DNA from: Nitrospirota bacterium
GTDB lineage: Bacteria > Nitrospirota > UBA9217
DNA length: 64,000 nt
Assembly: GCA_963663225.1 (NCBI GenBank)
Contig: OY760142.1
Location: 2,240,001-2,304,000, forward strand
Direction of reading: 5' to 3'
The position numbers and the translations under genes are program-made. The first letter of the stretch is position 1. Each line of letters starts with the position of its first letter. This document shows, one piece after another, positions 5,395-29,839 of this stretch. The notes beneath the pieces are model-generated. The model made no database searches. It had not been told where the DNA came from and saw only the letters and a program-made list of their open reading frames with translations.

Positions 5395-6897
5395 ATGCCG
5401 AAATACGGGCTCTTTTCTTATTTCCTTTCAACCATACTTTCACTTGTTTTGTTTTTGTTCAGCGCCTCCCTTGCAGCGGCCAAGTCAACCGTAGATGAAA
5501 TTAAATCGCGCGGCGTGCTGCTCTGGGGATCGGACTCCGAGGGCGGTGCGCCCTATGTGTTTCCGGACCCGAAGGCCCCCTCAAGACTCATCGGGTTTGA
5601 ACTCGATATTGCGGAAGCAGTGGCAAAAGAACTGGGCGTCAGGGCGCAACTCGTTCAAACGGCATGGGACAGCCTGATTCCGGCGCTTGAACGCGGGGAT
5701 TACGATCTGGCGATGAATGGCCTGGAGATCATTCCAGAAAGGGAAAAAAGAGTCCTTTTCTCCAGACCATACTATGTTTTTACGCTCCAACTGATGGTCC
5801 GGAATGAAGAGCAAAACATCAGAAGCATTCAGGACCTGCCGGGAAAGAAGGTAGGCACCCTTGCGGGTGCTGTCGCCCATGATATGTTGAAACAGATCGG
5901 CAACGTGGACGTCCGCTCCTATTCGGCGGCCTGGCCCTATGAAGATCTTGCCCTCGGAAGACTGGACGCTGTTTTTCTTGATACTCCCATCACGGTTTAT
6001 TATGGAAAACCGGATGCACGGCTCAAATACGCCGGTCCTCCGGAAGGGGAGGGATTTTACGGCATCGCAATCCGGAAACAAGACAGGGATCTTAAAGACG
6101 TTGTTGACAGGGTCATTGACCGGCTGCTTCGCACCGGTGAATTGAAGCGGATCTATGAAAAGTGGGGCCTGTGGGACAAGGCACAATCAAAACTTTCCTC
6201 CTACAATATGGCGACAACCGATGCGGGGCGGCAGTTTCGCTCCGAGAGTACGAACACTCCGCTGTATACGTTTTTCCCTTCGCTCCTGAAAGGAGCCGCA
6301 ATTACCGTCCTGATTTCTGCTGCGTCCATGGCGCTTGCAATGCTCTTCGGTGCTATGCTTGCCGTGGCCCGGGGATACGGACCACGGCCTGCTGGAATTG
6401 CCGCAACTGCCTATGTGGAAATTTACCGCGGTACGCCGCTTCTCATACAGCTCTTTATCCTGTACTACGGCCTGCCGAATGTCGGCATCACGCTGTCGCC
6501 GCTTGCCGCTGCCGTCATCGGTCTCGGAATGAACTACGCGGCCTATGAAGCCGAAGTTTACCGTGCGGGCATGGATGCCGTACCGCGGGGCCAGATGGAG
6601 GCCGCTCTCTCGCTCGGTATGGACCAATCTCTTGCATTGAGAAAAATAATTTTCCCCCAGGCTTTCAGGGTCAGTCTGCCTGGGGTAACGAATGATTTCA
6701 TCGCCCTGTTTAAGGATTCCTCCATTGTCTCGGTCATTGCCATGGTGGAGCTGACCAAAACATACGGCATCCTTGCGGCCACGACGCTTCGTTATTTTGA
6801 GCTTGGCGTCATCGTTGCAATTTTGTATTTCGGTATGAGCTATCCGTTGTCACTCCTCGCGAGAAGACTGGAGCGGAAATTAAAAGGCAAGCGTTAA
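5395..6897 (+). CDS. Polar amino acid ABC transporter, fused substrate-binding protein and permease
   Basis: Signal peptide and SBP_bac_3-type domain (GFELDIA...WDSLIPALERG), then HisM-type permease (RGTPLLIQL, EAA loop GQMEAALSLGM). Confidence 0.92.
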   Translation: MPKYGLFSYFLSTILSLVLFLFSASLAAAKSTVDEIKSRGVLLWGSDSEGGAPYVFPDPKAPSRLIGFELDIAEAVAKELGVRAQLVQTAWDSLIPALERGDYDLAMNGLEIIPEREKRVLFSRPYYVFTLQLMVRNEEQNIRSIQDLPGKKVGTLAGAVAHDMLKQIGNVDVRSYSAAWPYEDLALGRLDAVFLDTPITVYYGKPDARLKYAGPPEGEGFYGIAIRKQDRDLKDVVDRVIDRLLRTGELKRIYEKWGLWDKAQSKLSSYNMATTDAGRQFRSESTNTPLYTFFPSLLKGAAITVLISAASMALAMLFGAMLAVARGYGPRPAGIAATAYVEIYRGTPLLIQLFILYYGLPNVGITLSPLAAAVIGLGMNYAAYEAEVYRAGMDAVPRGQMEAALSLGMDQSLALRKIIFPQAFRVSLPGVTNDFIALFKDSSIVSVIAMVELTKTYGILAATTLRYFELGVIVAILYFGMSYPLSLLARRLERKLKGKR

Positions 6898-6954: not shown

Positions 6955-7728
6955 ATGATTACCGTCAGCAACCTTCACAAGTCATTCGGAGAGCATCGGC
7001 TGTTTAAAGGGATCAGCCTCGATATTTCCCGCGGAGAGGTTGTCGTTCTGATCGGCCCTTCAGGCAGCGGCAAGAGCACGTTTTTGCGGTGCATCAACGG
7101 GCTTGAAACCTTTGACCAGGGCGAAATCGACATCGACTCGATAGCCCTGCATTCCATCAACCGGTCGGCGCCGTCTCGAAGAGACCGCGAAGCCATCAGG
7201 CAGGTCAGATTGAAAGTGGGGATGGTATTTCAGCAGTTTAACCTTTTCCCTCATCTGACGGTGATGGAGAATATTATAGAAGCGCCCGTGAATGTGCATG
7301 GCATTGACCGGGCAACAGCCGAAGCGGAAGCGCTTGTATTTCTGCACAGAGTCAATCTGGAGAAAAAAGCGGGGAGCATGCCGGAAACTCTTTCCGGCGG
7401 AGAGCAGCAGCGCGTGGCCATCGCACGCGCCCTTGCCATGAAGCCGCAGGCAATGCTTTTTGACGAGCCCACGGCATCACTGGATCCGGAGATGGTGGGG
7501 GAGGTTCTTGCAGTCGTCAAGGACCTTGTGTGCCGGGACAACATGACCACGCTTATCGCCACGCATGAAATGAGCTTTGCCCAAGAAATCGCGGACCGCA
7601 TCATCGTTTTTGACGACGGCGACATCATTGATGCAGGCACACCGGAAGAAATTTTTCTGAACCCTCGTCACGAAAGAACCAGGTCCTTCCTCAGCAGGGT
7701 CCGCACGGGTACGATGTCCTCTCCTTGA
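6955..7728 (+). CDS. Polar amino acid ABC transporter ATP-binding protein (GlnQ type)
   Basis: Walker A GPSGSGKS, VFQQFNLFPH, LSGGEQQRVAIARAL, FDEPT. Confidence 0.95.
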   Translation: MITVSNLHKSFGEHRLFKGISLDISRGEVVVLIGPSGSGKSTFLRCINGLETFDQGEIDIDSIALHSINRSAPSRRDREAIRQVRLKVGMVFQQFNLFPHLTVMENIIEAPVNVHGIDRATAEAEALVFLHRVNLEKKAGSMPETLSGGEQQRVAIARALAMKPQAMLFDEPTASLDPEMVGEVLAVVKDLVCRDNMTTLIATHEMSFAQEIADRIIVFDDGDIIDAGTPEEIFLNPRHERTRSFLSRVRTGTMSSP

Positions 7729-8853: not shown

Positions 8854-11448
8854 TCAGGAATCCAGAACAGTTCGTATTTTTGACAGCAGGACCTTCGGCG
8901 GCACGGGCTTGTTGATCAAGGTTGTTTTCTCGGGGATTGTTCCACCCTGGACCAGCATCTGTGCTGTATATCCGCTCGAAAAAATGATTTTGATGTCCGG
9001 TCTGATTTTTCTGATTGCTTCGTAAGCTTCCCTGCCGCTTTTTTTAGGCATGATTACATCAAGAATTACCAGATTGATGGCTTCTTTGTGATCGCTGAAT
9101 TTTTGTATCGCGTCTTCCCCGTCGCGTGCGGTGATGACGGTATACCCCTGCTGGCTGAGTATAATCTCCGTAAGCTTGCTTACTTTTTCGTCATCTTCCG
9201 CCACGAGAATGGTTTCCGTTCCACCCACGGGCAGAGCCGCCTCTGTCTCTGTTTCGCGGGAAGCGTTTTTTTCCGAGTGCGCCACCGGAAGATATATATG
9301 AACGCAGGTGCCGTTTCCAGGCTCGCTGTAGAAGGTTATGTATCCTTCATGCTGCTTTATGATGCCGTATACCATGGCAAGTCCCAGGCCGGTTCCTTTT
9401 CCCGGTTCCTTGGTCGTGAAAAACGGGTCGAAGACTTTTTCCAGCGTTTCCTTTGTCATACCCGTTCCGGTATCGCATACTGAAATCAACGCGTAGATCC
9501 CCGGCTTACCGGTGCCGTGAGCGCGGATGAAGGCCTGGTCCAGTTCCACCAGTTTGGTACGGAAGTTAAGTTGCCCTCCCTGCGGCATGGCGTCCCGTGC
9601 ATTGGTCGCCAGATTCATGAGCACCTGCTCCATCTGGCTGGCGTCGGCCAGGGTGATGATTTCTTTGTCCGCAAGGTCGGTGGTCATTTCAATGTCTTCA
9701 CCGATGATCCGGGAAAGCAGTTTCTTGAATTTCAGGATAAGATCATTAATGTTCAGCAATGTGGGATTCATTACCTGCTTCCTGCTGAAGGCCAGGAGGC
9801 TCCGGGTGACTTCGGCAGCCCTGCCGCCGGCCGTCAGTATCTGTTCTGCATATTCCCTGGCTGTCGCATCAGTGCCGATTTTTCTCTTGAGAAGTTCTCC
9901 ATATCCCAGTATTGCCGACAGAACATTATTGAAATCGTGCGCGATGCCGCCGGCAAGCTGGCCGACCGCCTCCATTTTTTGCGCCTGCTTGAGCTGCTGC
10001 TCAAGTCTTTTGCGTTCGGTGATGTCATGGTTTATCCCGCGATATGCAATGATAACGCCTTCGTCGTTCCGCAGCGCGGTGACCGTGGAAAGGACCGTCA
10101 GCTTTTTCCCGTCTTTCCTCTTGAATTCCAATTCATAATCCTTGACAAAGCCTCTTTCTTCGAGGACTTGCATATAGGCTTTTCTGTCTTCGGGATTTAC
10201 GAAGATATCGGTATTGATGTCCAGGCGCAGCATTTCTTCCTTCGAGGCATAGCCAAGCAGGTCTATAGCCGCCGGGTTTACATCAAGATACCTTCCTTGC
10301 GGAGTGCTGATGAATATTGCGTCTTTCGATTCTTCGAAGAGTGTCCGGTAGTTTTTTTCCGATTTTTTGCGCTCTTCGTTCTGGCGTTCAAGTGCCTCCG
10401 CCATTCCGTTAAAACTGTCGCCCAGCTGGCTTATTTCGTCATGATGTCCGGCCACGTTCACCCGGACACCCAGATTCCCCTGCGAAAGATCTTCAGTGGC
10501 TTTTGTGAGTACTTTCATGCGGCGCAGGATGAAATAGCTCCCCCCGATCCACGCGAGGGCAAGGGTCAGCCCGGCTATAACCAACAGCGTCAGAAGGCTT
10601 TTCATCAGGGTCTGATTAATCTTGAAAAACGCCGCGGCGCGGGAGGTGCCGAACACAACATGCATACCGTTGTCCGTTCCCTGCACCGGAGTGAACGCAT
10701 AGATCCGCCACATATCGTCCACACCCCTGTCCACGCTAATGCCCTCGTTCTGCATAAGGATCGCCTGAGCGAGGCTATACCGGGCAACGCTTTTTCCCAT
10801 CCAGGCATCGGGGTCAGGATAGCGGTAGAGGAGAGTTCCACTGTGGTCCACGATGGTCAGAGTGGACTGGTCAGGCAGCTTTATTTTATTCAATTGTTCC
10901 TTGAACCAAGCGAGGTCAATGGCGACATATACAACGGCTTTCAGAACGTGCGTTTTATCAAGTACCGGCGACGCTAATAGAATTGTCGGCCTATTATCGA
11001 TCCTCGACAGTTGATACTCGCCGAGCGTCAATTGCTTTTTTTGAACCGCGGTTTGAAAATAAAGCCGATCAGAGACATTTACCTTTTTTTTGAGGGGAGT
11101 GGCGCTGCAAAAGATGTCACCTTTGAGGTCTATCGCCGCTATATTGCCGTACATGGGCAATTTCTTTTTGAAATCGGCGAAATAAGCGTTGCACGAGGCA
11201 GCATCATGGTTCTGGACGGCGGGCAGCTCCGAGAGGACTTCAAGAATCTGGTGGGCGCCTTCTAAAAGCTGTTCGATATTATTGGCGGCCAGTTTTGCCG
11301 TCCGCATTGTTTCAGCGCGTATCTCTATCTCTTTTTGGTTTCGCTGCTCCGAGGCGGTGTATACCAGAAGACCGAGGGTCGGAATAATTGCAAGAATGAC
11401 CAATATCAAGAGGCGGGCGCGAAGGCTTGAAGAAAAAAAAGCAGACAT
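8854..11448 (-). CDS. Hybrid sensor histidine kinase (Cache-HAMP-PAS-HisKA-HATPase-REC)
   Basis: Two TM segments, H-box AGGIAHDFNN, NLATNARDAM, FFTTKEPGKGTGLGL, C-terminal receiver (ILDVIMP, KP). Confidence 0.95.
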   Translation of the reverse strand: MSAFFSSSLRARLLILVILAIIPTLGLLVYTASEQRNQKEIEIRAETMRTAKLAANNIEQLLEGAHQILEVLSELPAVQNHDAASCNAYFADFKKKLPMYGNIAAIDLKGDIFCSATPLKKKVNVSDRLYFQTAVQKKQLTLGEYQLSRIDNRPTILLASPVLDKTHVLKAVVYVAIDLAWFKEQLNKIKLPDQSTLTIVDHSGTLLYRYPDPDAWMGKSVARYSLAQAILMQNEGISVDRGVDDMWRIYAFTPVQGTDNGMHVVFGTSRAAAFFKINQTLMKSLLTLLVIAGLTLALAWIGGSYFILRRMKVLTKATEDLSQGNLGVRVNVAGHHDEISQLGDSFNGMAEALERQNEERKKSEKNYRTLFEESKDAIFISTPQGRYLDVNPAAIDLLGYASKEEMLRLDINTDIFVNPEDRKAYMQVLEERGFVKDYELEFKRKDGKKLTVLSTVTALRNDEGVIIAYRGINHDITERKRLEQQLKQAQKMEAVGQLAGGIAHDFNNVLSAILGYGELLKRKIGTDATAREYAEQILTAGGRAAEVTRSLLAFSRKQVMNPTLLNINDLILKFKKLLSRIIGEDIEMTTDLADKEIITLADASQMEQVLMNLATNARDAMPQGGQLNFRTKLVELDQAFIRAHGTGKPGIYALISVCDTGTGMTKETLEKVFDPFFTTKEPGKGTGLGLAMVYGIIKQHEGYITFYSEPGNGTCVHIYLPVAHSEKNASRETETEAALPVGGTETILVAEDDEKVSKLTEIILSQQGYTVITARDGEDAIQKFSDHKEAINLVILDVIMPKKSGREAYEAIRKIRPDIKIIFSSGYTAQMLVQGGTIPEKTTLINKPVPPKVLLSKIRTVLDS

Positions 11449-11764: not shown

Positions 11765-12772
11765 CTATTCCCATCGGAAAATCATGGAGCCAATGGAAAG
11801 GAAAATTGCCGTCATGATCACAAGAACCACCAGGTGAGGCGCAATGTCCGTAAAGCCGGCCCCTTCGGTCATGATCGCGCGGGCGCCGTCAACAACGTGG
11901 GTGAGCGGCAGAAACTGGGCGATTTTCTGGATAAGAGGATTTGTGCCTTCGAGCGAAAACCAGACGCCTGAAAGCAGCATCATGGGCCAGGTAAGAAGGT
12001 TCAGTATGCCGCCTGCCAACTCTTCACTTGACAACCGGGCGGCAACGAGCAGCCCGAGCGATATCAGGCAGATTGCTCCGATGACGGAGACGAGAAACAG
12101 GTTCACATACGAACCACGCATCTGGAAATGAATGAAATAATCACAGCCGACATAGACAGCTACGGTAATCGTCTGGATCAGGAGCAGCCGCGACATCATC
12201 TGGGCAAGCAGGAACTCAAACGGCCGGAGCGGAGTTGCTTTCAGGCGTTTTAAAAATCCATTCTTGCGGTACCGTACGATCACATATCCTACTCCGAAAA
12301 GACAGCTGAACATCATGTTCATGGCAAGGATGCCCGGAACAACCCAGTCTACGTATCGGATCTCGCGCCCCTGGACCGTCAGCCGTTCATAATCCGTATT
12401 CGCGGATCCTTTGAGCAGGCGTTCTAGTACGTATCCGTTCGGTGCGTTTTCATTGATCCAGTAACGCTTTCCGGAACGCAGATCGATCAGCATGTCGAGC
12501 TGAAAATGTTCAACCTTATCGACGGCCTTGTCCGGATCTTCAACCGGAATGAACTGAACGTACTTCATCTCGAAAAAAACGGTTTCTGCCGGTTGCAGGG
12601 CGGCGATATCGCCCATGACGCCGACCTTGAACATCGGCTTGGGTTCTCCGGAAAAGACGACGGCAAACCCGAGAACAAGCAGAAGCGGAAAAAAGATATT
12701 CCAGCCGAACGACGACTTGTCTCTGATAAACTCCATGTTCCTGGCATGCAGGATGGCCAAAAAACGTTTCAT
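11765..12772 (-). CDS. ABC-2 type exporter permease
   Basis: YVDWVVPGILAM, GFLKRLKATPL, multiple TM segments. Follows the ABC ATPase. Confidence 0.9.
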   Translation of the reverse strand: MKRFLAILHARNMEFIRDKSSFGWNIFFPLLLVLGFAVVFSGEPKPMFKVGVMGDIAALQPAETVFFEMKYVQFIPVEDPDKAVDKVEHFQLDMLIDLRSGKRYWINENAPNGYVLERLLKGSANTDYERLTVQGREIRYVDWVVPGILAMNMMFSCLFGVGYVIVRYRKNGFLKRLKATPLRPFEFLLAQMMSRLLLIQTITVAVYVGCDYFIHFQMRGSYVNLFLVSVIGAICLISLGLLVAARLSSEELAGGILNLLTWPMMLLSGVWFSLEGTNPLIQKIAQFLPLTHVVDGARAIMTEGAGFTDIAPHLVVLVIMTAIFLSIGSMIFRWE

Positions 12773-12793
12773 AATTTCTGTTTTCCGATGTGC

Positions 12794-13678
12794 TCAGCTC
12801 CGCAGCTGTTTGCCGGTGAGCGCAATAAACAAGTCTTCCAGGCTCCATGACCGCATGTTCATGCGAGACAGTGAAACCCCGTTGTCCAGCAGCTTTCTGA
12901 TCGTGCCGTCGATATCGTGTGTTTGTATCTCCCGCCAGCCGGGCTGGTTTGAAGCGCGAAATTCCATCCAACCATTGTTGCCGGTCAGATCTTCCTCCGG
13001 GATCTGCAGCACAACATCGCCGAAGTGCTCTTTCAGCAACTGTTCCGGTGTCCCCTGTGCAATGATTTTTCCCTTGTCCATGAAGGCGATTTCGTCGCAG
13101 AGCGTATATGCTTCCTCCATATAGTGCGTTGTAAGAACAATGGTTTTATTACGTGACTTGATAAGATTGATCAAGTCCCAGAAATTCCGGCGGGACTGCG
13201 GGTCGAGTCCGGTCGTGGGTTCATCGAGGAAAAGCACTTCCGGGTCGTTGATCAGCGCGAGGGCCATAAGCAGCCGCTGGCGCTGTCCGCCCGAAAGCTT
13301 GCGCGTGTCGCGGTCAAGAAACTCATCAAGACTGCAAAGCCGGATGATTTCTTCCAGAGGCATGGAATGGGGGTACAGTTCTCTGAACAGTTTCAGCGTT
13401 TCTTTGACAGTCAGAAATTCCTGGAGCGAGGTCACCTGAAACTGGATTCCGGCTTCCTTGCGGAATGTTTGGCCTGCAGGCGCGCCTTTGTAGAGTGTAA
13501 ATCCGGAATCCGCCGGTTTAATGCCCTCGATTATCTCAATGAGCGTTGTTTTGCCGGCTCCGTTCGGGCCCAGCAGTCCAAAGCAGATGCCTTGCATGAT
13601 GGAGAGGGTCACGCCGTCCACGGCCCGGACGCCGGGATAGATTTTTGTGAGGTTGTGTGTTTCGATTATCGGTGCCAT
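12794..13678 (-). CDS. ABC-2 type exporter ATP-binding protein
   Basis: GPNGAGKTT, LSGGQRQR, LDEPTTGLDP, TTHYMEEA. Start set at MAPII (13678). Confidence 0.93.
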   Translation of the reverse strand: MAPIIETHNLTKIYPGVRAVDGVTLSIMQGICFGLLGPNGAGKTTLIEIIEGIKPADSGFTLYKGAPAGQTFRKEAGIQFQVTSLQEFLTVKETLKLFRELYPHSMPLEEIIRLCSLDEFLDRDTRKLSGGQRQRLLMALALINDPEVLFLDEPTTGLDPQSRRNFWDLINLIKSRNKTIVLTTHYMEEAYTLCDEIAFMDKGKIIAQGTPEQLLKEHFGDVVLQIPEEDLTGNNGWMEFRASNQPGWREIQTHDIDGTIRKLLDNGVSLSRMNMRSWSLEDLFIALTGKQLRS

Positions 13679-22211: not shown

Positions 22212-24770
22212 TCAGGACGCCACCCTTGATGCTTTACGGAGTTTTATTATCTCAAACCATACTATGCTTACAATTCCGGCGGAGAAGCAGAGCGCGAGGT
22301 CTATTCCATGCAGCGTATTGAACTGGAAGAGTGTGTGCATGAACGGGGTGTAGAGCACAATGCCCAGAAACAGAACCGCTCCGCCCAGGACCATCCAAAG
22401 CGCGGGATTGGGATACCGGAATGTCCTGAGGATGCTGCGGGTCCATGATCTGTTTGTCAGGATCAGTCCGAGATTCGCTATGATGAGCGTCGTAAAGCAG
22501 AGGGTCCTCGCTTCAGATTCACCTTGATTGCGATACAGCGCTGTAACATATACCAGGAAAACAACGAGCAGTACAGCGGCCCCTTGCAGCAGACTGAACG
22601 CAATCATGCTGTGGCCGAAGAGCGGAACCCCGAGACTGCGGGGCGGACGCTTCATGATGTCCGACTCCTCCGTCTCCGCTTCGAATACGATTGAGCAGGC
22701 CGGATCGATGATCAATTCAAGAAATACGATATGCACCGGCAGCAGCACCAGCGGCCAGTGGAGCAGTACCGGCAGCAGCGACATCCCGGCTATCGGTACG
22801 TGGACGGCAAAAATATACACCATGGCTTTTTTGAGATTGTCGAATATCCTTCTGCCCATTCTGACAGCCTGAACGATCGACGTGAAATCGTCATCCAGCA
22901 GCACGATTGCCGAAGCCTCGCGGGCAACGTCCGTCCCCCGTCCACCCATCGCGATTCCGATATGGGCCGCCTTGAGCGCCGCCGCGTCATTCACGCCGTC
23001 GCCGGTCATGGCCACGACCTCGCCGTTTGCCTTCAATGCGTTGACGATGAACAGCTTCTGTTCAGGAGCAACTCTCGCAAAAATATCAACGTTGCCGATC
23101 TTTTGCCGGAGCTCCGCCGCGCTCATCTTCTCAATTTCTGGACCCGTGATGACCTCGGCGCGGTTCTTCAGCCCGACTTCCGCGGCGATATTCTGTGCCG
23201 TGACCGGATAGTCTCCGGTTATCATCACGACTCGTATCCCGGCCTCGGAGCACTCCTTGACGGCCTCCGTCACACCCGGCCGGACAGGATCCGCCAGACC
23301 TATCAGCCCCATGAAATCAAAAACAAAGTCATGCTGCCCAGCCGGAAGCGAACCTTTTGAGAAAACAGACCGTGCTATACCGATGACCCTGAGCCCTTCG
23401 ACCGCCATTGTGTCGATGGCGCGGGTAATCTGCTCTTTCAGGGTTTCGTCCAGATGACAGATGTCGGCAATGGCTTCGGGAGACCCCTTTGCGGCAATAA
23501 TGAAGTCCTTGCTGTCAGGTGATTTCCAGACGCGGGACATGGCCAGCAGTTCTGGGGAGAGGGGATATTCCTCCACCAGGACCCAATCGTCGTGAAGATG
23601 GCCGGTATCGGCAAGCGTCCTGTTTCCGAGTTCACGCAGGGCCATTTCCATCGGGTCGAACGGAGCCGCCTGGCTCGCGAGAATACTGAATTCGACGAGC
23701 TCATGGATATTTTCATTGATTGTTTCGGCATCGTACGCCAGATCATAGAACGTGTTTCCAGAAAATACTTTTTTTACGGACATCCGGTTCAGCGTAAGCG
23801 TGCCGGTTTTATCAACACAGAGAACAGTTGCGGAACCGAGCGTTTCCACCGCCGGAACACGCCGCGTCAGAACTCTTTTTTGCGATATCCGCCACGCGCC
23901 GAGAGCAAGGAAAATGGTCAGTACTACCGGAAACTCCTCCGGAAGCATTGCCATGGCGAGGGTTATTCCGGCAAGCAGCCCGTTCAACCAGTTGCCGCGT
24001 GTGAGACCGTAGGCGACAACAACAAGAACAAAAAGTGCCAGTCCGATGAGCGCAAGATTCCGGACCAGCTTCGCGGTTTCTTTCTGCAGACGCGTCCGCT
24101 CGTGCACGATGGTGTTGAGAGACGTGCCTATTTTTCCTATCTCCGTGTCCTCGCCGATCGCTTTGCTTTCCGCGACGCCGAAGCCCTGCACAACCAGTGT
24201 TCCGGAAAATACGCACGGCAGGCAATCACCGCCCGGGCGGGACATTGCAGTAGAGCTTTCCGCGGGTGTTTTTCTTACCGGGATTGATTCGCCGGTAAGC
24301 AATGACTCATCCACGAAGAGATTGACGCAGGAAAGAACGATTGCGTCGGCAGGCACGCGGTCTCCCTCTGCCAGAACGATGATATCGCCCCGCACCACGT
24401 CACGGCCCGGTATCCGTTTCGGGGCTCCGTCTCTGATGACGAGGGCACGGGGGCTTGCGAGGTCCCGCAATGCCTCAAGAGCGCGCTCGGTCTTGCGTTC
24501 CTGATACAGTGTTATGCCTATGACCAGAAACACGAAGCAGAGCAGCAGAAGAGCTTCGACAACATCCCCGAGTAGCAGGTAAATGCCGCCCCCGGAAATC
24601 AGAAGCAAAAACATGGGTTCCTTTATGACCTCGAAGGCTATTGTGGCGGTGCTTTTCTGTTTGGACGCAGGAAGCTCGTTATGCCCGTCTCTGGCAAGTC
24701 TTATCCCGGCTTCCGTCTCGGAAAGCCCCGGAAAGTTCTGAATATTTGTAGCTGTTTTTATCATCAGCAC
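22212..24770 (-). CDS. P-type ATPase, type II (Ca2+/cation-translocating)
   Basis: DESLLTGES, PEEFP, DKTGTLT, MITGD, TGDGVNDA. Confidence 0.94.
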   Translation of the reverse strand: MLMIKTATNIQNFPGLSETEAGIRLARDGHNELPASKQKSTATIAFEVIKEPMFLLLISGGGIYLLLGDVVEALLLLCFVFLVIGITLYQERKTERALEALRDLASPRALVIRDGAPKRIPGRDVVRGDIIVLAEGDRVPADAIVLSCVNLFVDESLLTGESIPVRKTPAESSTAMSRPGGDCLPCVFSGTLVVQGFGVAESKAIGEDTEIGKIGTSLNTIVHERTRLQKETAKLVRNLALIGLALFVLVVVAYGLTRGNWLNGLLAGITLAMAMLPEEFPVVLTIFLALGAWRISQKRVLTRRVPAVETLGSATVLCVDKTGTLTLNRMSVKKVFSGNTFYDLAYDAETINENIHELVEFSILASQAAPFDPMEMALRELGNRTLADTGHLHDDWVLVEEYPLSPELLAMSRVWKSPDSKDFIIAAKGSPEAIADICHLDETLKEQITRAIDTMAVEGLRVIGIARSVFSKGSLPAGQHDFVFDFMGLIGLADPVRPGVTEAVKECSEAGIRVVMITGDYPVTAQNIAAEVGLKNRAEVITGPEIEKMSAAELRQKIGNVDIFARVAPEQKLFIVNALKANGEVVAMTGDGVNDAAALKAAHIGIAMGGRGTDVAREASAIVLLDDDFTSIVQAVRMGRRIFDNLKKAMVYIFAVHVPIAGMSLLPVLLHWPLVLLPVHIVFLELIIDPACSIVFEAETEESDIMKRPPRSLGVPLFGHSMIAFSLLQGAAVLLVVFLVYVTALYRNQGESEARTLCFTTLIIANLGLILTNRSWTRSILRTFRYPNPALWMVLGGAVLFLGIVLYTPFMHTLFQFNTLHGIDLALCFSAGIVSIVWFEIIKLRKASRVAS

Positions 24771-25192
24771 CTTAAATCTATAAAACCATAATCTTGACTT
24801 TTATTATTATTGTATCAAACCTGCGACGGGATGTGGATACTGATGAATCTGCACTGAAGCCGATCAAGTTGGCTGGTATTAGCTTAATGTCTTATCGGTA
24901 GTATGTATATTATTATATATTCTTTAAAATATAATTTTCTTCCTGTTGTCGACACTTGGAACGATTGATCCTAGTATACAATTATGAAGTAGCATAGGTG
25001 GATGGAGAAGAGGTGTAAAAAAAATATCGCAGGCACCGTCGTGGGTGTTTTATTAACCGTCGGGCTGCAGTATCAATCCTTCAGCTCTGCAGCATCGCAT
25101 GCGACTTGTCGCCATTGATTCTGCAGCTGCGTTTCTCTGTAAAGGCTTCTCAATTCTGCTTGAAATATGCACAGATGATACGCAGAATGCTC

Positions 25193-25221
25193 TTGACAAA
25201 AAGGCCTTCTCGCTTTATCAT
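25193..25221 (+). promoter_or_regulatory. Sigma70 promoter of the ArsR/selenoprotein operon
   Basis: TTGACA (25193-25198), 17 bp spacer, TATCAT (25216-25221). Confidence 0.75.
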
Positions 25222-25239
25222 ATTAGTAATAACTCATAT
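25220..25239. promoter_or_regulatory. Putative ArsR/SmtB operator
   Basis: Inverted repeat ATATTAGT-AATA-ACTCATAT (one mismatch) overlapping the -10 box and expected +1. Confidence 0.62.
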
Positions 25240-25256
25240 AAGTGAAGGCTAATGTT

Positions 25257-25601
25257 ATGACATCTAAAATAGAAAAACTGGCAAAAATATTCAAAGTGCT
25301 AGGCGACCCGAACCGACTCACTATCGTTATGTCGATCGGCAAAAGCTCTCGATCGGTGACCGAAATCATTAATACTACAGACTTGTCTCAAACCTTGGTA
25401 TCCTTTCACTTGAAAGCGCTCCGAAATGCCTCAATAGTCAAAACAGACCGCAGTGGGCCATTTATTTATTACAGCCTCACAGAGCCGTCACTCATGGATA
25501 TTCTGGGTGAACTCACGCGCACGGTTTCTTCCATAGATTTAATAGGATCGAAGATACAGGTGGCAACCAACGGGCGGGGCTCTGACAGGAGAAGGAGGTA
25601 A
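25257..25601 (+). CDS. ArsR/SmtB family transcriptional repressor
   Basis: FKVLGDPNRLTI, LSQTLVSFHLKALR, GPFIYYSL. Start is ATG 25257 or GTG 25242. Confidence 0.92.
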   Translation: MTSKIEKLAKIFKVLGDPNRLTIVMSIGKSSRSVTEIINTTDLSQTLVSFHLKALRNASIVKTDRSGPFIYYSLTEPSLMDILGELTRTVSSIDLIGSKIQVATNGRGSDRRRR

Positions 25602-25603
25602 CT

Positions 25604-25849
25604 ATGTGGTGGAACGGACCGGGTCCAGGATGGGGGCCGATGTACGGCTGGTGGATCATGCCGATATTCGGGATTATTTTCCTGCTGATCATTCTTTTCA
25701 TCGTCAGCCGTTTTTTCGGCAGCGGGAACGGCTTCTGCGGCAAGCGAGAACGGCGGGATGATGACGGCATACTTGAACTGAAAAAAGAGATACAGGAACT
25801 TAAGGAAGAAATCAGGGAATTAAAGAACGCACAGGGCGGAGGCAAATAA
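25604..25849 (+). CDS. Small single-pass membrane protein with C-terminal coiled coil
   Basis: RBS AAGGAGG. G/W/M-rich N-terminus, one TM segment, ELKKEIQELKEEIRELK. Stop abuts the next ATG. Confidence 0.8.
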   Translation: MWWNGPGPGWGPMYGWWIMPIFGIIFLLIILFIVSRFFGSGNGFCGKRERRDDDGILELKKEIQELKEEIRELKNAQGGGK

Positions 25850-26329
25850 ATGGAAAAGGATAAAATCGGCGACATGTTGTCGCAGGTAAGCCCCGTTCAC
25901 AAAAAAGAAATACTCAATAACCTTATTGCCACCCTACTTAAAGACCTGAACGAAACTGATAAAAAAGAAGTATTTCAAGCGATTCTGACAGGAAGAAAAA
26001 ATTCAGGTCAAGTCATCGATATGGTTGAGCGCTGAATACAGGAATGCACGGATTCCGGCGTGAATCCTGTGGAGATGAGTAAAGAGGTTATTTCGGCCAT
26101 CAGCCATTCTTATGAACTTGCCACCTATTCTACACCTGAGCTACGGGGGCTTTTCAACGACTGGTTAGGAGAAATCGAACGAGAAATCATAGAATTTCTT
26201 TCGGAGAAAGATACGGTAGATCCAGACGAGGTTTCAAAGCATTTCAGGCTTGAACGCGAAAGTGCCATATTTATATTAAGCAGGCTAGCCCGTGAGGGCA
26301 AAATCAACCTTCAGGCATCGGGTACCTGA
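25850..26329 (+). CDS. Putative selenoprotein (159 aa, U62 in UxxxC) with wHTH-like C-terminus
   Basis: Track ORFs 25850-26035 and 26060-26329 share one frame, separated only by TGA 26033-26035 (MVER-U-IQEC). A SECIS-like hairpin follows. Confidence 0.72.
26047..26071 (+). promoter_or_regulatory. SECIS-like hairpin 1
   Basis: CACGGATTC-CGGCGT-GAATCC(T)GTG. Loop begins 20 nt after the TGA. Confidence 0.65.
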
Positions 26330-26355
26330 TGCACAGATCCGAGATAGAAGGGAGC

Positions 26356-26619
26356 ATGGACAATAAAATACTGAATACTGGAGCTATTACATCAGCGCTG
26401 GCCTATACGTTTTGCTGACAACTTGTTACAGTCCTAGCCGGTTTTGGGTTGGGAGGCTTCACCCCGGCAGTTTGGATAGATAAATACCGTTGGCTGTTTC
26501 TGGCGGTAGCGGTTGTGCTCCTTGCATTCGCCTTTTACCGGGCGTACAGGGACCGCGAAAAGACAAGCCCATGGGGATCAGGCTTTTGTAAGGAGCTTCT
26601 ATTCTCTGCCTTGTCCTGA
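26356..26619 (+). CDS. MerT-like mercury/metal transporter, putative selenoprotein (C20-U21), absent from ORF track
   Basis: RBS AGGGAG. MDNKILNTGAITSALAYTFC-U-QLVTVLAGFGLGGFTPAVWIDKYRWLFLAVAVVLLAFAFYRAYR aligns with the MerT TM1 CC pair and YRxxF...YR. TGA at 26416-26418. Confidence 0.8.
26432..26454 (+). promoter_or_regulatory. SECIS-like hairpin 2
   Basis: TCCTAGCC-GGTTTTG-GGTTGGGA (8 bp including 2 G-U). Loop begins 21 nt after the TGA. Confidence 0.62.
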
Positions 26620-26657
26620 TATTTTATTCCCTGCTGTAGAAGACAAAGGAGTTTACC

Positions 26658-28082
26658 ATGACAGACGATCTTAAAAAGAAAAGCGGCGGTGCTTCCTGCT
26701 GACCCCCCGATACTGATGCCGGTCGGCAGCAGAGCACTTGTACAAATGACGTAGAGCAGAAGCAGTCTAATACCGAGCACTGCATGGTTTGTGGCTCATC
26801 CCTGGAATACCTTGACCAGACAAGGCATATAACATGTTCATATTGCGGAAAGATCGAGGGCGGCCATATCATGTGCCCCAACGGTCACTATATCTGCGAC
26901 CATTGCCACAACCGGGGCGCAATGGAGATTATTCAAGATATTTCGCATATGTCAAACTCTAAAGACCCATTTGAGATTGCGGAATTGATGATGAGCTATC
27001 CAGGGCTTCCCATGCTCGGGTGCCAGCATGCCTACATCGCGAGCGGTGCGCTCATGGCCGCGATAAAAAATGAGGGTTCGCGGAGCATCACAAACAACGA
27101 TATGGATGAGGTCTTCAAACGCACCGAGAAACAAGCTCATGGCGGGTACTGCGGTCTTTCAGGCGTATGCGGCATCGCTCCAGCCATTGGGGCTTGCTTT
27201 TCAGTTCTTACCGGCTCAAAATGCGGCACCACCCAAGAGCAGCAGATCACCATGGAGGCTGTAACGCGTGTATCACGCGTTATCACCGACCTTACCGGCC
27301 CAAGCTGCTGCAAAGCATATGTGCGGGGTGCCCTGGAGGTTTCGGTATCGCTTTTGAAGGATAGTTTAAATATCATCCTGCCTTCGCCTAAAGAGAAAGC
27401 GACCTGCACTTACTCAAGCAAACATCCCCATGGCTGCCGAGAAGGACAGTGTCCGTATTTTGCTGTAACTGTAGAACCCACAAGAGCAGCCTTGAACATG
27501 AGTAAAGTACCTGTCTCACTAATCATAAGAAAAGTGGCTTCAACAGATAGCAAGATGAAAGAGTTATTAAAACGAGCTTTGGAGTTAGGCGCGGATAATG
27601 CAAAAATAATCTCCACTGATTCGGTTGTGGTAGAGGAGTGGGCCCGGTGGAAGTGCCAGTACGGATGCGCACTCTATGAAAAGGATGGCTGCCATCCACC
27701 CAATGCTCCTGATGCTGAAAGTACGAAGAAACTTATGAGAGAATACAGCACGGCCGTGCTCCTTAAGGGATCCAAGGGAAAAGCACTCACAGAAATTGCA
27801 GTTCGGCTTGAAGGAGAAGCTTACCATCAGGGCTACTATAAGGCATTTGCTTTAACGGCGCTTTCAAGCGGCGGCGGAAGCGGATCGACCTGACCCTCCG
27901 GCGATAAAGAGACTCCGGGTGAGTCTCAAAATATGGAACAGCAAAACATGAGAATCCGGCCTCTTATGGAAGCCTGCGGCATTGATGTTTTTAAGACAGC
28001 AAGAAACAACGGTTTTGAAATAGACACTAAAAAAGAAACATACGGTGGTTGGAATTACTTTGCACTTATTTTGGTGGAATAA
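26658..28082 (+). CDS. DUF5714-DUF2284 fusion metal-binding protein, putative double selenoprotein (474 aa, U15 and U412)
   Basis: RBS AAAGGAG before ATG 26658. TGA 26700 (GGASC-U-PP) is in frame with track ORF 26784. After TGA 27891 the frame continues with the DUF2284-type tail RPLMEACGIDVFKTARNNG...YFALILVE to TAA 28080-28082, which abuts the next ATG. Confidence 0.82.
26713..26732 (+). promoter_or_regulatory. SECIS-like hairpin 3
   Basis: CTG-A-TGCC-GGTC-GGCA-G-CAG. Loop begins 18 nt after the TGA. Confidence 0.55.
27909..27927 (+). promoter_or_regulatory. SECIS-like hairpin 4
   Basis: GAGACTC-CGGGT-GAGTCTC, perfect 7-bp stem. Loop begins 22 nt after the TGA. Confidence 0.7.
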
Positions 28083-28388
28083 ATGAAGATTGAATGTTAC
28101 CTATCACAAGGTTGCTCTTCTCTTGAAGAGCTAAAAGCAAATATCGAACAGGCGCTTAACATGTCCGGTATTAAAGCGGAGATGTATTATTATCAAATAG
28201 GCGATGAAGAAGCCGCCGAATTAAAACTGGCCGGTTCTCCAACGGTCTTGATAGACGGCAAAGACATTGCCCCGGGTGCAGCGCCGGGATTTTCCTGAAG
28301 AACATACCGTGACGAGTCTGGCAGGCTCGGCAATGTTCCTACGGTTGAAATGCTTTTAAAAGCACTTCTTGTTAGCAAAAAGCAATGA
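28083..28388 (+). CDS. Small thioredoxin-fold putative selenoprotein (101 aa, U72)
   Basis: GC near N-terminus, GSPTVLIDGKD, then GFS-U-RTYRDESGRLGNVPT. This matches the CRxY...G..GVP tail of small Trx-like proteins from mer/metal loci. TGA at 28296-28298. Confidence 0.82.
28313..28329 (+). promoter_or_regulatory. SECIS-like hairpin 5
   Basis: CGAGTCT-GGC-AGGCTCG. Loop begins 20-21 nt after the TGA. Confidence 0.65.
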
Positions 28389-28569
28389 AGTGAGCAGCGA
28401 ATCTCGGTGTCCCATAACTGCTTTATAGTAGAGCAGAGACATCATAAGTTGATCGGCATCAGCAAGGCCCAAGACGTAGTTTGTACATGATACAAATCGT
28501 ATTTAATGATACTTGCGCGTGATCAAAATTGCGGAAAAGCAGGTGAAGTCCGTATCGCATCTTTTTGAA

Positions 28570-28740
28570 TTACAGTGTATTATACGCAGTTTGTAAATAA
28601 GCTACAAGCTGAGTAACTGATTCGTGAAGCGAGTAATGGTTGAAAATTGCAACAAGCAAGCCGGCGACAAGGCAGCCTCCTGCGACCAATCCGAGAAATC
28701 GCGCAATCATCAGCATCATTTGAACATACAGTACCATCAT
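28570..28740 (-). CDS. Small hydrophobic protein (56 aa), absent from ORF track
   Basis: RBS AAGGAGG 8 nt before ATG. MMVLYVQMMLMIARFLGLVAGGCLVAGLLVAIFNHYSLHESVTQLVAYLQTAYNTL. Confidence 0.55.
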   Translation of the reverse strand: MMVLYVQMMLMIARFLGLVAGGCLVAGLLVAIFNHYSLHESVTQLVAYLQTAYNTL

Positions 28741-29095
28741 ACTAGTGTCCTCCTTGCCGGTCGAATATGCGTTTTTTGTTGTTGACCGGTGTGTGCTCCA
28801 GCATTTGTTATTTCACTGTTGATTAAAACATACGTCCTTTGGTCTTCTTTGTAAATGTGGAAGATACTGATGATGTCTCAGGTAAATCCGAAAGCTGTCC
28901 AAAAAAAATTTTATTGGGATCAGAAATGAGGATTGAGCAATGGAAATAGACTACAATGTAACGCGGGAGGAGGGCCTCATGTATTTTCGTTAGAATGAGG
29001 ACCGTGAGGGATGCGTGAAAATCGGGCATTCTCATTGACAGCCCGGAAACAATTGTGATATAGTGCAACGGCTTGAGCAGGATTTTCCCCTCGCC

Positions 29096-29839
29096 ATGAC
29101 CTCTATGAAAAAACTATTCATTATAATAATATTGCTGGCGCTTTTTGCCGGATGCGCTCCGAAAGAACCGCCTTTCAATGCTGCAGCCACGTTCAGCAAG
29201 GGCGAAGAAAACATGCAGAGTGGAGAATTTGAAGACGCGCGCAAAGAGTACCAGGCAATCCAGGAAAAATCACCGGACAGAACCTATGATCCCGTGTTGA
29301 TGCTCAGGATCGCGGATACCTATTTCGGGGAAAAAAATTACAGCGAGGCGCAGGTCGAATATCAGGCTTTTCTCAATTATCATCCCGTGCACAAGGACGC
29401 TGCGTACGCCCAGTTCCAGATTGCCATGTGCAGCTACAGGGAATTGACCAGCATTGACCGTGATCCGGTGCTCAACCAGATTGTGATCAGGGAACTGCGC
29501 AAGCTGAAGGAAAAATATCCACGGAGCAGCTACTCGGAGGACGCGGACACCTATATTGCAAACTGTCTTGACCGCCTTGCGCAGCATGAGTTTTACGTTG
29601 CGAAGTTTTATTACAAGAAGGACGCTTACAAGGCGGCAGCAGGCAGATGTGAAAAGATATTGAAATCCTACCCTGCGTCGTCCGTTGAAAAGGACGCGCT
29701 TTATTATGCTGGTTTGGCCTATGCGGAACTGGGAGAACGGGACCAGGCACGCGTCAAGTTCGAGGCGCTCGCGCAACAGTATCCTGAAATGAAGAAGACC
29801 GCTCAGAGCCACCTGCACAAACTTCAGCAAAATCCTTGA
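29096..29839 (+). CDS. bamD: Outer membrane protein assembly factor BamD
   Basis: Lipobox FAGC, TPR repeats, YQAFLNYHPVH, IDRDP, LAQHEFYVAKFYYKK. Start is ATG 29096 or 29105. Confidence 0.88.
   Translation: MTSMKKLFIIIILLALFAGCAPKEPPFNAAATFSKGEENMQSGEFEDARKEYQAIQEKSPDRTYDPVLMLRIADTYFGEKNYSEAQVEYQAFLNYHPVHKDAAYAQFQIAMCSYRELTSIDRDPVLNQIVIRELRKLKEKYPRSSYSEDADTYIANCLDRLAQHEFYVAKFYYKKDAYKAAAGRCEKILKSYPASSVEKDALYYAGLAYAELGERDQARVKFEALAQQYPEMKKTAQSHLHKLQQNP

Follow-up and report, generated by a model that had tools for sequence, protein, structure and literature searches.

An ArsR-headed operon of four predicted selenoproteins of the MbdU/Tso-like kind in a Nitrospirota bacterium, with a possible role in soft-metal or metalloid handling

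A six-gene operon with four consecutive selenoprotein genes occupies positions 25193 to 28388 of the forward strand in a 64,000-nucleotide stretch of a Nitrospirota genome (GenBank assembly GCA_963663225.1, contig OY760142.1, positions 2,240,001 to 2,304,000), hereafter called the window. A promoter-like site is followed by six tightly packed genes, i.e., arsR, a small membrane gene, a TsoA-like gene (gene 3), a MerT-like gene (gene 4), mbdU (gene 5), and a DF-family gene (gene 6), which as judged from the sequence form one transcription unit. We predict with high confidence that five in-frame UGA codons in genes 3 to 6 are read as selenocysteine (Sec, U) by the SelA/SelB/SelD/tRNA-Sec system of the cell. 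The operon can be assigned to an already catalogued, recently named kind of selenoprotein neighborhood (MbdU/Tso-like), and it is moderately probable that it represents one operon of true selenoproteins that handle a thiophilic metal or metalloid via their selenols. The current study adds the Cys-less nature of the ArsR regulator, a conserved head of ArsR and TsoA-like protein in front of varied cargo, and methyltransferase fusions of both MbdU domains. Such a density of Sec codons, five within four neighboring genes, is unusual for so costly an amino acid and points to chemistry that sulfur does poorly.

Read with TGA as U, gene 3 contains U62, gene 4 contains U30, gene 5 contains U15 and U412, and gene 6 contains U72; the respective codons start at bases 26033, 26416, 26700, 27891, and 28296. 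The Sec motifs are, in this order, ERUIQEC (UxxxC), FCUQL (CU), SCUPP (CU), STUPSG, and FSURTY. An earlier note made by a model from the letters of the window alone, the sequence-only reading, had already located these five TGAs in four consecutive genes without TAA or TAG and had described tight gene packing. Read-through translation confirmed both claims: none of the four frames contains a TAA or TAG, the stop codon TGA of gene 3 (26327-26329) overlaps the ATG of gene 4 at 26329, and the TAA of gene 5 (28080-28082) directly adjoins the ATG of gene 6 at 28083. The same note had proposed to look for the Sec machinery in the host, all parts of which were found. The host genome is a single contig of 3,255,001 bases (98.99% complete), in which profile searches detected adjacent selA (597 bits) and selB (376 bits) genes, both over the cut-off, and a selD gene (372 bits); a tRNA-Sec with the anticodon TCA is also present. 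The selD gene (C1:522565-523479, minus strand; locus L010) has one in-frame TGA, so that selenophosphate synthetase is itself a selenoprotein. An alternative genetic code was considered and rejected because TGA is the stop of 613 of the 1676 open frames with 300 or more codons in the genome; with TGA so frequent as an ordinary stop, the standard code applies and a code with TGA as a sense codon is excluded.

Codon conservation was counted in loci of related genomes, in 44 metagenome loci found with an alignment of the TsoA-like protein, and in a sample of 301 genomes of the phylum. In the related genomes, TGA is present in 5/5 loci at U62, 2/2 at U30, 11/11 at U15, 6/6 at U412, and 1/1 at U72. 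Among the metagenome loci, the U62 codon is TGA in 42 of the 43 that cover it and TAA in the remaining one, and Cys66 is kept in all 43; TGA was found in 6/7 loci at U30 (TGC in one), in 6/6 at U15, and in 10/12 at U412, where both loci with TGC are distant paralogues. For the DF gene, 28 loci of the phylum sample cover position 72, with TGA in 20 and Cys in 8, within the motif [C/U]-R-x-[Y/F]. Protein similarity runs on at both sides of each TGA, which, together with the recurrence of TGA at the same codons in orthologues of other genomes and metagenomes, goes beyond chance.

The sequence-only reading had further proposed to check whether homologues have TGA or Cys at each of these positions. 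Cys occurs at four of the five sites (U15, U30, U412, and U72), where more distant homologues have Cys counterparts, e.g., CCC in the motif SECCCP at U15 (genome G026) and the CxxCxxC loop GPCSLCESC at U412 in DUF2284 paralogues. At U62, a Cys form was looked for among the TsoA-like homologues examined and not found, and three full-length TsoA-like proteins of the Joint Genome Institute (JGI; P0005-P0007) have tryptophan at this position. Since TGG is absent from this site in all 43 DNA loci, the tryptophan in the JGI records is read as TGA translated under another code; a TGA=Trp code was probably selected by the JGI gene caller because the contigs contain many Sec codons. The one locus in which TAA replaces the Sec codon of the TsoA-like gene (L123, 5001-5390) has no ArsR in the 5 kb upstream and may be a decaying gene copy.

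A hairpin that resembles a Sec insertion sequence (SECIS) starts 15 to 21 nt after each of the five Sec TGAs and is conserved in the orthologous sites, and the TGA stop codons that end genes 3 and 4 lack such a hairpin. Compensatory pairs were detected at four of the five sites in alignments of 8 to 39 sequences, which share ancestry, so that the following counts are not independent events. The hairpin after Sec62 (26050 to 26067, plus strand, as are the following four) has a 6-bp stem and the loop AGGYGU, with one covarying pair among 39 sequences (U-A 24, C-G 13, U-G 2). After Sec30 (26432 to 26454), 8 pairs are kept in 8 sequences, with no two-sided compensatory change. The hairpin after Sec15 (26715 to 26730; GAUGCC-GGNN-GGCAUC) shows compensatory changes at 3 pairs among 17 sequences, that after Sec412 (27909 to 27927; 7-bp stem, loop CGGGU) has one covarying pair among 16 sequences (U-A 12, C-G 3), and that after Sec72 (28313 to 28329; CGAGUC-NGGNA-GRCUCG) has one among 20 sequences (C-G 12, U-A 5). 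A G-rich apical loop is a criterion for a bacterial SECIS, and the apical loops of the conserved hairpins are G-rich at all five sites. An Rfam scan of positions 24500-29500 with E-values up to 10 returned four chance-level matches, none of which belongs to a SECIS family.

The interpretation that the TGAs do not encode Sec, and instead represent sequencing errors, pseudogene lesions, or Trp or Gly codons of another code, could draw on the tryptophan of the three JGI records and on the TAA in L123. It would have to explain the same five TGAs in many independent genomes and metagenomes, the absence of TGG at U62 from all 43 loci, the conserved SECIS-like hairpins, a complete Sec machinery, the frequent use of TGA as a stop codon, and the Cys residues of distant homologues, and we regard it as extremely improbable.

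The largest of the four selenoproteins, with 474 amino acids, is encoded by gene 5 (26658 to 28082, plus strand). It passes the NCBIfam model NF045648, "metal-binding double selenoprotein MbdU," with 750.4 bits versus a cut-off of 600 over model positions 6 to 468 of 468; on this basis it is a member of the MbdU family, and nothing that sets it apart was found. A C14-U15 tail (TGA 26700-26702) precedes a DUF5714 domain (Pfam, 156.4 bits) and a DUF2284 domain (98.3 bits) with U412 (TGA 27891-27893). For the latter, the normally Cys-rich loop anticipated by the sequence-only reading was recovered as the CxxCxxC of the Cys paralogues. A 2026 review (PMC13188914), citing Haft and Tolstoy 2025, lists MbdU with a CU motif and two Sec as well as TsoA, TsoB, TsoC, TsoX, and TsoY as selenoproteins. 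The earlier impression that the operon had not been described thus fails at the family level, where curated NCBIfam selenoprotein models for MbdU, TsoA/TsoR, and the DF family and the published listings show that it is not new. A literature search, supplements aside, found no functional study of DUF2284, DUF5714, or DUF2703 (COG5423/PF10050/PF18978/PF10865).

About 16 Cys and His residues of DUF5714 are kept in 78-99% of the relatives, and the conserved elements comprise two CxxC...CxxC/H ribbons, the motifs GGxCGxxGxCG and GPxCCK, and three C-terminal Cys. In the predicted structure, DUF5714 (residues 41-270) has a predicted local distance difference test (pLDDT) score of >90, and residues 1-40 and 394-424, which hold both Sec, score <50; both Sec segments are probably flexible. 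A Foldseek search of this model against the Protein Data Bank (PDB) gave no match at E-values up to 0.001. In a wide VIA-align search, the best match was CyuA, an Fe-S cysteine desulfidase (Z 6.5, root-mean-square deviation [rmsd] of 3.8 A over 129 residues), followed by PrpD/IRG1-type and serine dehydratase chains (Z 5-5.7); all of these Z values are within the noise range, below the level that is meaningful for helical models with this tool, and the CyuA match is a hint at an Fe-S-type helical domain in the MbdU model, no more. Sequence searches of the PDB with the MbdU, TsoA-like, and DF proteins yielded nothing below an E-value of 0.3.

Of 10 long relatives whose domains were examined, 7 join DUF5714 to radical S-adenosylmethionine (SAM) domains, SAM methyltransferase domains, or both; a fusion of DUF2284 with an O-methyltransferase was seen once. 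Against the model of the ArsM/DUF2284 selenoproteins, the last 185 residues of MbdU reach 308 bits. These proteins have the Sec-bearing DUF2284 domain in common with MbdU, but contain a methyltransferase domain where MbdU has DUF5714.

Gene 4 (26329 to 26619, plus strand) encodes a MerT-like membrane selenoprotein of 96 amino acids with the pair C29-U30 (TGA 26416-26418); translation perhaps starts at the ATG at 26356 instead. It remains below all MerT cut-offs (PF02411, 26.1 versus 32.9 bits; NF033560, 34.1 versus 130; NF010314, 30.6 versus 150). Alignment with an annotated MerT from a merT-merF-merA cluster (WP_119681888.1; 39% identity over 75 residues) places C29-U30 on the Cys-Cys pair of the first transmembrane helix (TM1), just as the sequence-only reading had claimed. 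The vicinal pair is encoded as C-TGA in 5, C-TGC in 1, and GCC-TGA in 1 of 7 metagenome loci. The likeness to the MerT of mer operons lies in the position of the TM1 pair, which is CU in gene 4, whereas the scores below the cut-offs and the mere 96 amino acids are differences. No member of the MerR, MerP, or MerA families was detected among the six operon products in profile searches. A small group of MerT-family selenoproteins with CU is mentioned in a preprint by Haft and Gwadz (10.1101/2022.07.06.499078).

The last gene of the operon (gene 6; 28083 to 28388, plus strand) encodes a thioredoxin-like selenoprotein of 101 amino acids with the motif U-R-T-Y (U72, TGA 28296-28298). It exceeds the Thioredoxin_3 cut-off (28 versus 24.8 bits) and matches the "DF family (seleno)protein" model NF049942 over its full length (1-96 of 96), with 63.9 bits just below the cut-off of 70 (56.1 bits in a six-frame search). 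Its Sec occupies the [C/U]-R-x-[Y/F] site of the family, in agreement with the earlier claim of a TGA in a C-R-x-Y site. Thioredoxin-like MTH895/ArsE and DUF2703 proteins were compared as further kin. NF049942 matches were found in 75 of the 301 genomes of the phylum sample, most of them with one TGA.

At the 5' end of the operon, arsR (25257 to 25601, plus strand) encodes an ArsR/SmtB-family regulator of 114 amino acids without any Cys. The ArsR-type winged helix-turn-helix was confirmed (HTH_5, 44.2 bits versus a cut-off of 22; NF033788, 75.7 versus 55), and TsoR (NF045707) is the closest model, with 83.4 bits versus an equivalog cut-off of 115. Of 31 orthologues, 29 are also Cys-less and the other two carry one Cys each, at different positions; the sole invariant His sits in the motif SFHL of the recognition helix. 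The lack of Cys implies that this ArsR is not a classical thiolate metal sensor, which weakens the sequence-only view of an operon under the metal-stress control typical of ArsR/SmtB repressors.

The constant neighbor of this regulator is the TsoA-like selenoprotein of 159 amino acids (gene 3; 25850 to 26329, plus strand), with Sec62 (TGA 26033-26035) in the motif U-x3-C66 and a winged-helix C-terminal end. The UxxxC motif that had been noted before was recovered as ERUIQEC. TsoA (NF045695) is its best NCBIfam match, although with 99.7 bits the protein is below the equivalog cut-off of that model (170 bits). Across 32 orthologues its motif is x-U-I-x-E-C with [RHY] before U (RUIQEC in the window), and the LULAXC motif is not present; since it has only the U-x3-C spacing in common with TsoA, we named it TsoA-like. 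Its database relatives carry a FeoC-like Pfam domain. In the predicted structure (mean pLDDT of 65.8, <50 in the Sec region), the confident part is a C-terminal winged helix, and Foldseek aligned the last ~50 residues with winged-helix DNA-binding domains (rmsd of 1.2-2.6 A, 44-53 columns), albeit with weak E-values.

An arsR gene lies directly 5' of the TsoA-like gene in 33 of the 44 metagenome loci, and 8 of the 11 loci without an adjacent arsR have <500 bases upstream of the TsoA-like gene. ArsR and the TsoA-like UxxxC selenoprotein are accordingly described here, from gene neighborhoods, as a conserved head. With a Cys-less ArsR next to an invariant U62/C66 in its constant neighbor, these two residues are the first to consider as the site of the sensing chemistry. 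We put forward, as a speculative and in fact unlikely proposal, that the TsoA-like protein is a Sec-based sensor in which the invariant U62-x3-C66 reacts with the inducer (a soft metal(loid) or an oxidant) and which acts through its winged helix with or on the Cys-less ArsR, so that any selenoprotein cargo downstream is switched on. If true, this would be a Sec-dependent transcriptional switch common to MbdU operons and ArsM-type selenoprotein operons.

The same head precedes other cargo elsewhere, namely an ArsM/DUF2284 selenoprotein in L100 (NF041536, 744 bits versus 575) and an ArsM/AhpD selenoprotein in L121 (NF041537, 564 bits versus 510). The cargo of the sister loci further includes small thioredoxin-like proteins and proteins with a GVUPPC motif, and L092 contains a corrinoid-type protein (198.6 bits, below the cut-off of 215.3), a thioredoxin-reductase-like gene, and a CobW-like gene. 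In the operon of the window, the organization of the head corresponds to that of the Tso system (TsoR, TsoA), in which an ArsR-type regulator is likewise followed by a small U-x3-C selenoprotein. However, the Tso system also has TsoB, TsoC, TsoX, and TsoY, none of which was matched by the six operon products, and the cargo of MerT-like protein, MbdU, and DF protein is different. As a side observation, the GVUPPC-motif proteins of ~125 amino acids with one in-frame TGA (L092, 947-1336; L121, 5530-5940; L126, 1091-1465) had no NCBIfam match at E-values up to 1e-6 and might represent an additional selenoprotein family for which no model exists.

The interpretation given by the sequence-only reading is supported in part: the handling of a soft metal or metalloid by the operon is plausible, and a stepwise transfer can be sketched that we consider possible, though tentative; all steps past Sec decoding draw on homology, motifs, domain fusions, and gene neighborhood. 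The MerT-like protein with its two transmembrane helices would carry a thiophilic metal or metalloid through the inner membrane by means of the Cys-Sec pair of TM1, with Hg(II) or an organomercurial, As(III)/Sb(III), and related soft species as candidates for the cargo. The flexible CU tail of MbdU would take over the cargo and hand it to the Cys/His-rich DUF5714 core and the Sec loop of DUF2284, where it would be bound or transformed. The DF thioredoxin-like selenoprotein could then resolve or reduce the resulting selenenyl-sulfide or metal adducts. Expression would be controlled by the Cys-less ArsR bound to the promoter region, with chemical sensing supplied by the TsoA-like protein (U62-x3-C66, winged-helix end). 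The methyltransferase fusions of the MbdU domains and the ArsM-type sister operons make a transformation of metalloids or organometals more likely than an efflux-type resistance.

These fusions and sister operons can also be read differently, i.e., the products of the operon may act as accessories or carriers when methyl groups are moved to or from a metal(loid) and serve organometal(loid) metabolism rather than uptake and detoxification. MbdU would then hold the substrate for, or present it to, a methyltransferase or corrinoid protein encoded elsewhere, with the selenols as nucleophile or leaving-group site. Such a role would fit the fusions of DUF5714 (7/10) and DUF2284, the 308 bits of the MbdU C terminus against the ArsM/DUF2284 model, the ArsM-type and (below the cut-off) corrinoid-type genes behind the same head, and the presence of hgcA and hgcB in the genome. 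However, none of the six products searched is a methyltransferase or corrinoid protein, the genome has no ArsM over the cut-off, MbdU does not track HgcA across genomes, and a domain fusion indicates functional association, not a reaction. We therefore judge a methyl-transfer role to be rather unlikely.

The hgcA gene of the host is located 1.29 Mb from the operon (C1:975295-976275, minus strand; locus L162) and scores 394.8 bits versus a cut-off of 275; the N-terminal extension of its product has CC, not CU, and an hgcB-like ferredoxin gene whose product ends in CCG is found just downstream. The presence of hgcA and hgcB makes the host a likely mercury methylator. A link of MbdU to mercury methylation was examined and rejected, since 2 of the 5 genomes with full MbdU contain HgcA (G000, G006) versus 81 of the 301 sampled genomes overall; HgcA was searched for and not found in G210, G263, and G225 (74% complete). 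According to the preprint 10.1101/2022.07.06.499078, HgcA carries a CU or CC on an N-terminal extension that gene callers miss, and the SAO system comprises several CU selenoproteins encoded side by side that are thought to bind a mercury-like atom. Their families are unrelated to those of the operon, but the Cys-Sec dipeptide and the side-by-side selenoproteins are alike. With hgcAB in the host and the same head before ArsM-type genes, the system may bear on the uptake and transformation of mercury, arsenic, and related elements by anaerobes.

A further reading dispenses with toxic metals and assigns to the operon a selenol/thiol redox relay or the trafficking of S, Se, or Fe-S, in which DUF5714 and DUF2284 would carry Fe-S clusters and Sec would tune the redox properties, as it does in many selenoproteins with a thioredoxin fold. 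Most bacterial selenoproteins are redox proteins. The DF protein fits thioredoxin-fold models, the U412 loop is CxxCxxC in DUF2284 paralogues, DUF5714 has ~16 conserved Cys and His, ArsR lacks metal-ligand Cys, and the weak best fold match of MbdU is CyuA. The CyuA match is in the noise range of the tool, however, and neither a MerT-type protein in the operon with its metal-binding Cys pair kept as CU nor the arsenite-methyltransferase-type genes behind the same head elsewhere would be expected from this reading, which appears improbable.

Several observations also weigh against the metal or metalloid handling by selenols that we favor. Four of the six gene products score below the curated cut-offs (MerT-like, DF, TsoA-like, and ArsR as TsoR), and U62 has the tryptophan records but no Cys form, as mentioned above. 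The Sec region of the TsoA-like protein and the DUF2284 half of MbdU are poorly modelled, and the fold of DUF5714 is without a clear solved relative. Profile searches of the genome revealed neither a MerA (best model match 367.9 bits versus 454.45) nor an ArsM over the cut-off, there is no methyltransferase gene among the six operon products, and HgcA is present in only two of the five genomes with full MbdU compared to 81/301 of the sample. A cultivable or expressible member would open the function of the family to testing.

Synteny, which the sequence-only reading had recommended for comparison, is partial: blocks of the operon recur in related genomes and metagenomes, and the complete six-gene order was seen in none of the other loci examined, so that the arrangement in the window is fuller than theirs. 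Full MbdU over the cut-off is encoded in 5 of the 301 genomes of the phylum sample (G000, G006, G210, G263, and G225), with TGA at all covered sites. In G006, G210, G263, two Nitrospirae contigs of metagenome-assembled genomes, and several metagenome contigs, mbdU is the neighbor that follows the TsoA-like gene, and a MerT-like gene lies between the two in G210, G263, L115/L116, L122, and L128 (in L118 in a Cys form). A DF gene after mbdU was detected only in the window and in G225, i.e., in one of ~10 other loci with downstream sequence.

Public gene calls are nearly all cut at the TGAs, and surveys of metal genes consequently miss these families. The 120 matches listed for the TsoA-like protein include 117 fragments that start after the TGA and measure 87-104 amino acids, and all 120 matches listed for MbdU are 270-411 amino acids long and cover at most 81% of the protein. 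In its own genome, the MbdU gene call comprises 369 amino acids, and the best representative match spans residues 43-406, between both Sec codons. The MbdU query retrieved 1462 representatives at E-values up to 0.001 and 50 at E-values up to 1e-30.

The small membrane gene between arsR and the TsoA-like gene (25604 to 25849, plus strand) encodes 81 amino acids, which comprise a hydrophobic helix and, after it, a charged one. Profile searches of Pfam and NCBIfam gave no family match, and in ~12 of the 44 metagenome loci tblastn located a homologue in the same position between the two neighboring genes. The promoter predicted by the sequence-only reading coincides with the best consensus site of our scan, a sigma-70-like TTGACA-17-TATCAT at 25193 to 25221 (plus strand) with 11 of 12 consensus matches, which is the top of 15 sites in a scan of low specificity (mean of 6.8 sites in shuffled sequence). 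Less secure is the operator named by the same reading: an imperfect palindrome, ATATTAGT-AATA-ACTCATAT at 25219 to 25238 (plus strand), was recognized by eye as a candidate, with 7 of 8 positions complementary and an overlap with the -10 hexamer, and it was not reported by a repeat search near the promoter, which returned only ATTCTGC/GCAGAAT at 25153-25188. The latter is a perfect 7-nt inverted repeat with 22 nt between its arms, just 5' of the -35 hexamer, and could be the binding site of a regulator instead.

Upstream of the operon, the window contains a divergently oriented gene (22212-24770, minus strand) for a P-type ATPase of 852 amino acids, which is nearest to Ca pumps of the PMR1/SERCA type, scores below every equivalog cut-off, and is not of the heavy-metal P1B type. 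Outside the window, a 13-codon open reading frame (ORF) in L046 (2038-2082) that starts with MKIEC, like the DF gene, follows right after the mbdU stop codon and resembles what is left of a DF gene that has been lost. In L081 (G210:C7), the block from arsR to mbdU is flanked by two copies of one gene (5564-6088 and 9612-10241, minus strand) whose products are identical over a long stretch, which, together with a transposase-like ORF (12455-13648), hints at mobility of the block in this locus. The same locus has a Met-rich ORF of 89 amino acids (7114-7383) between arsR and the TsoA-like gene.

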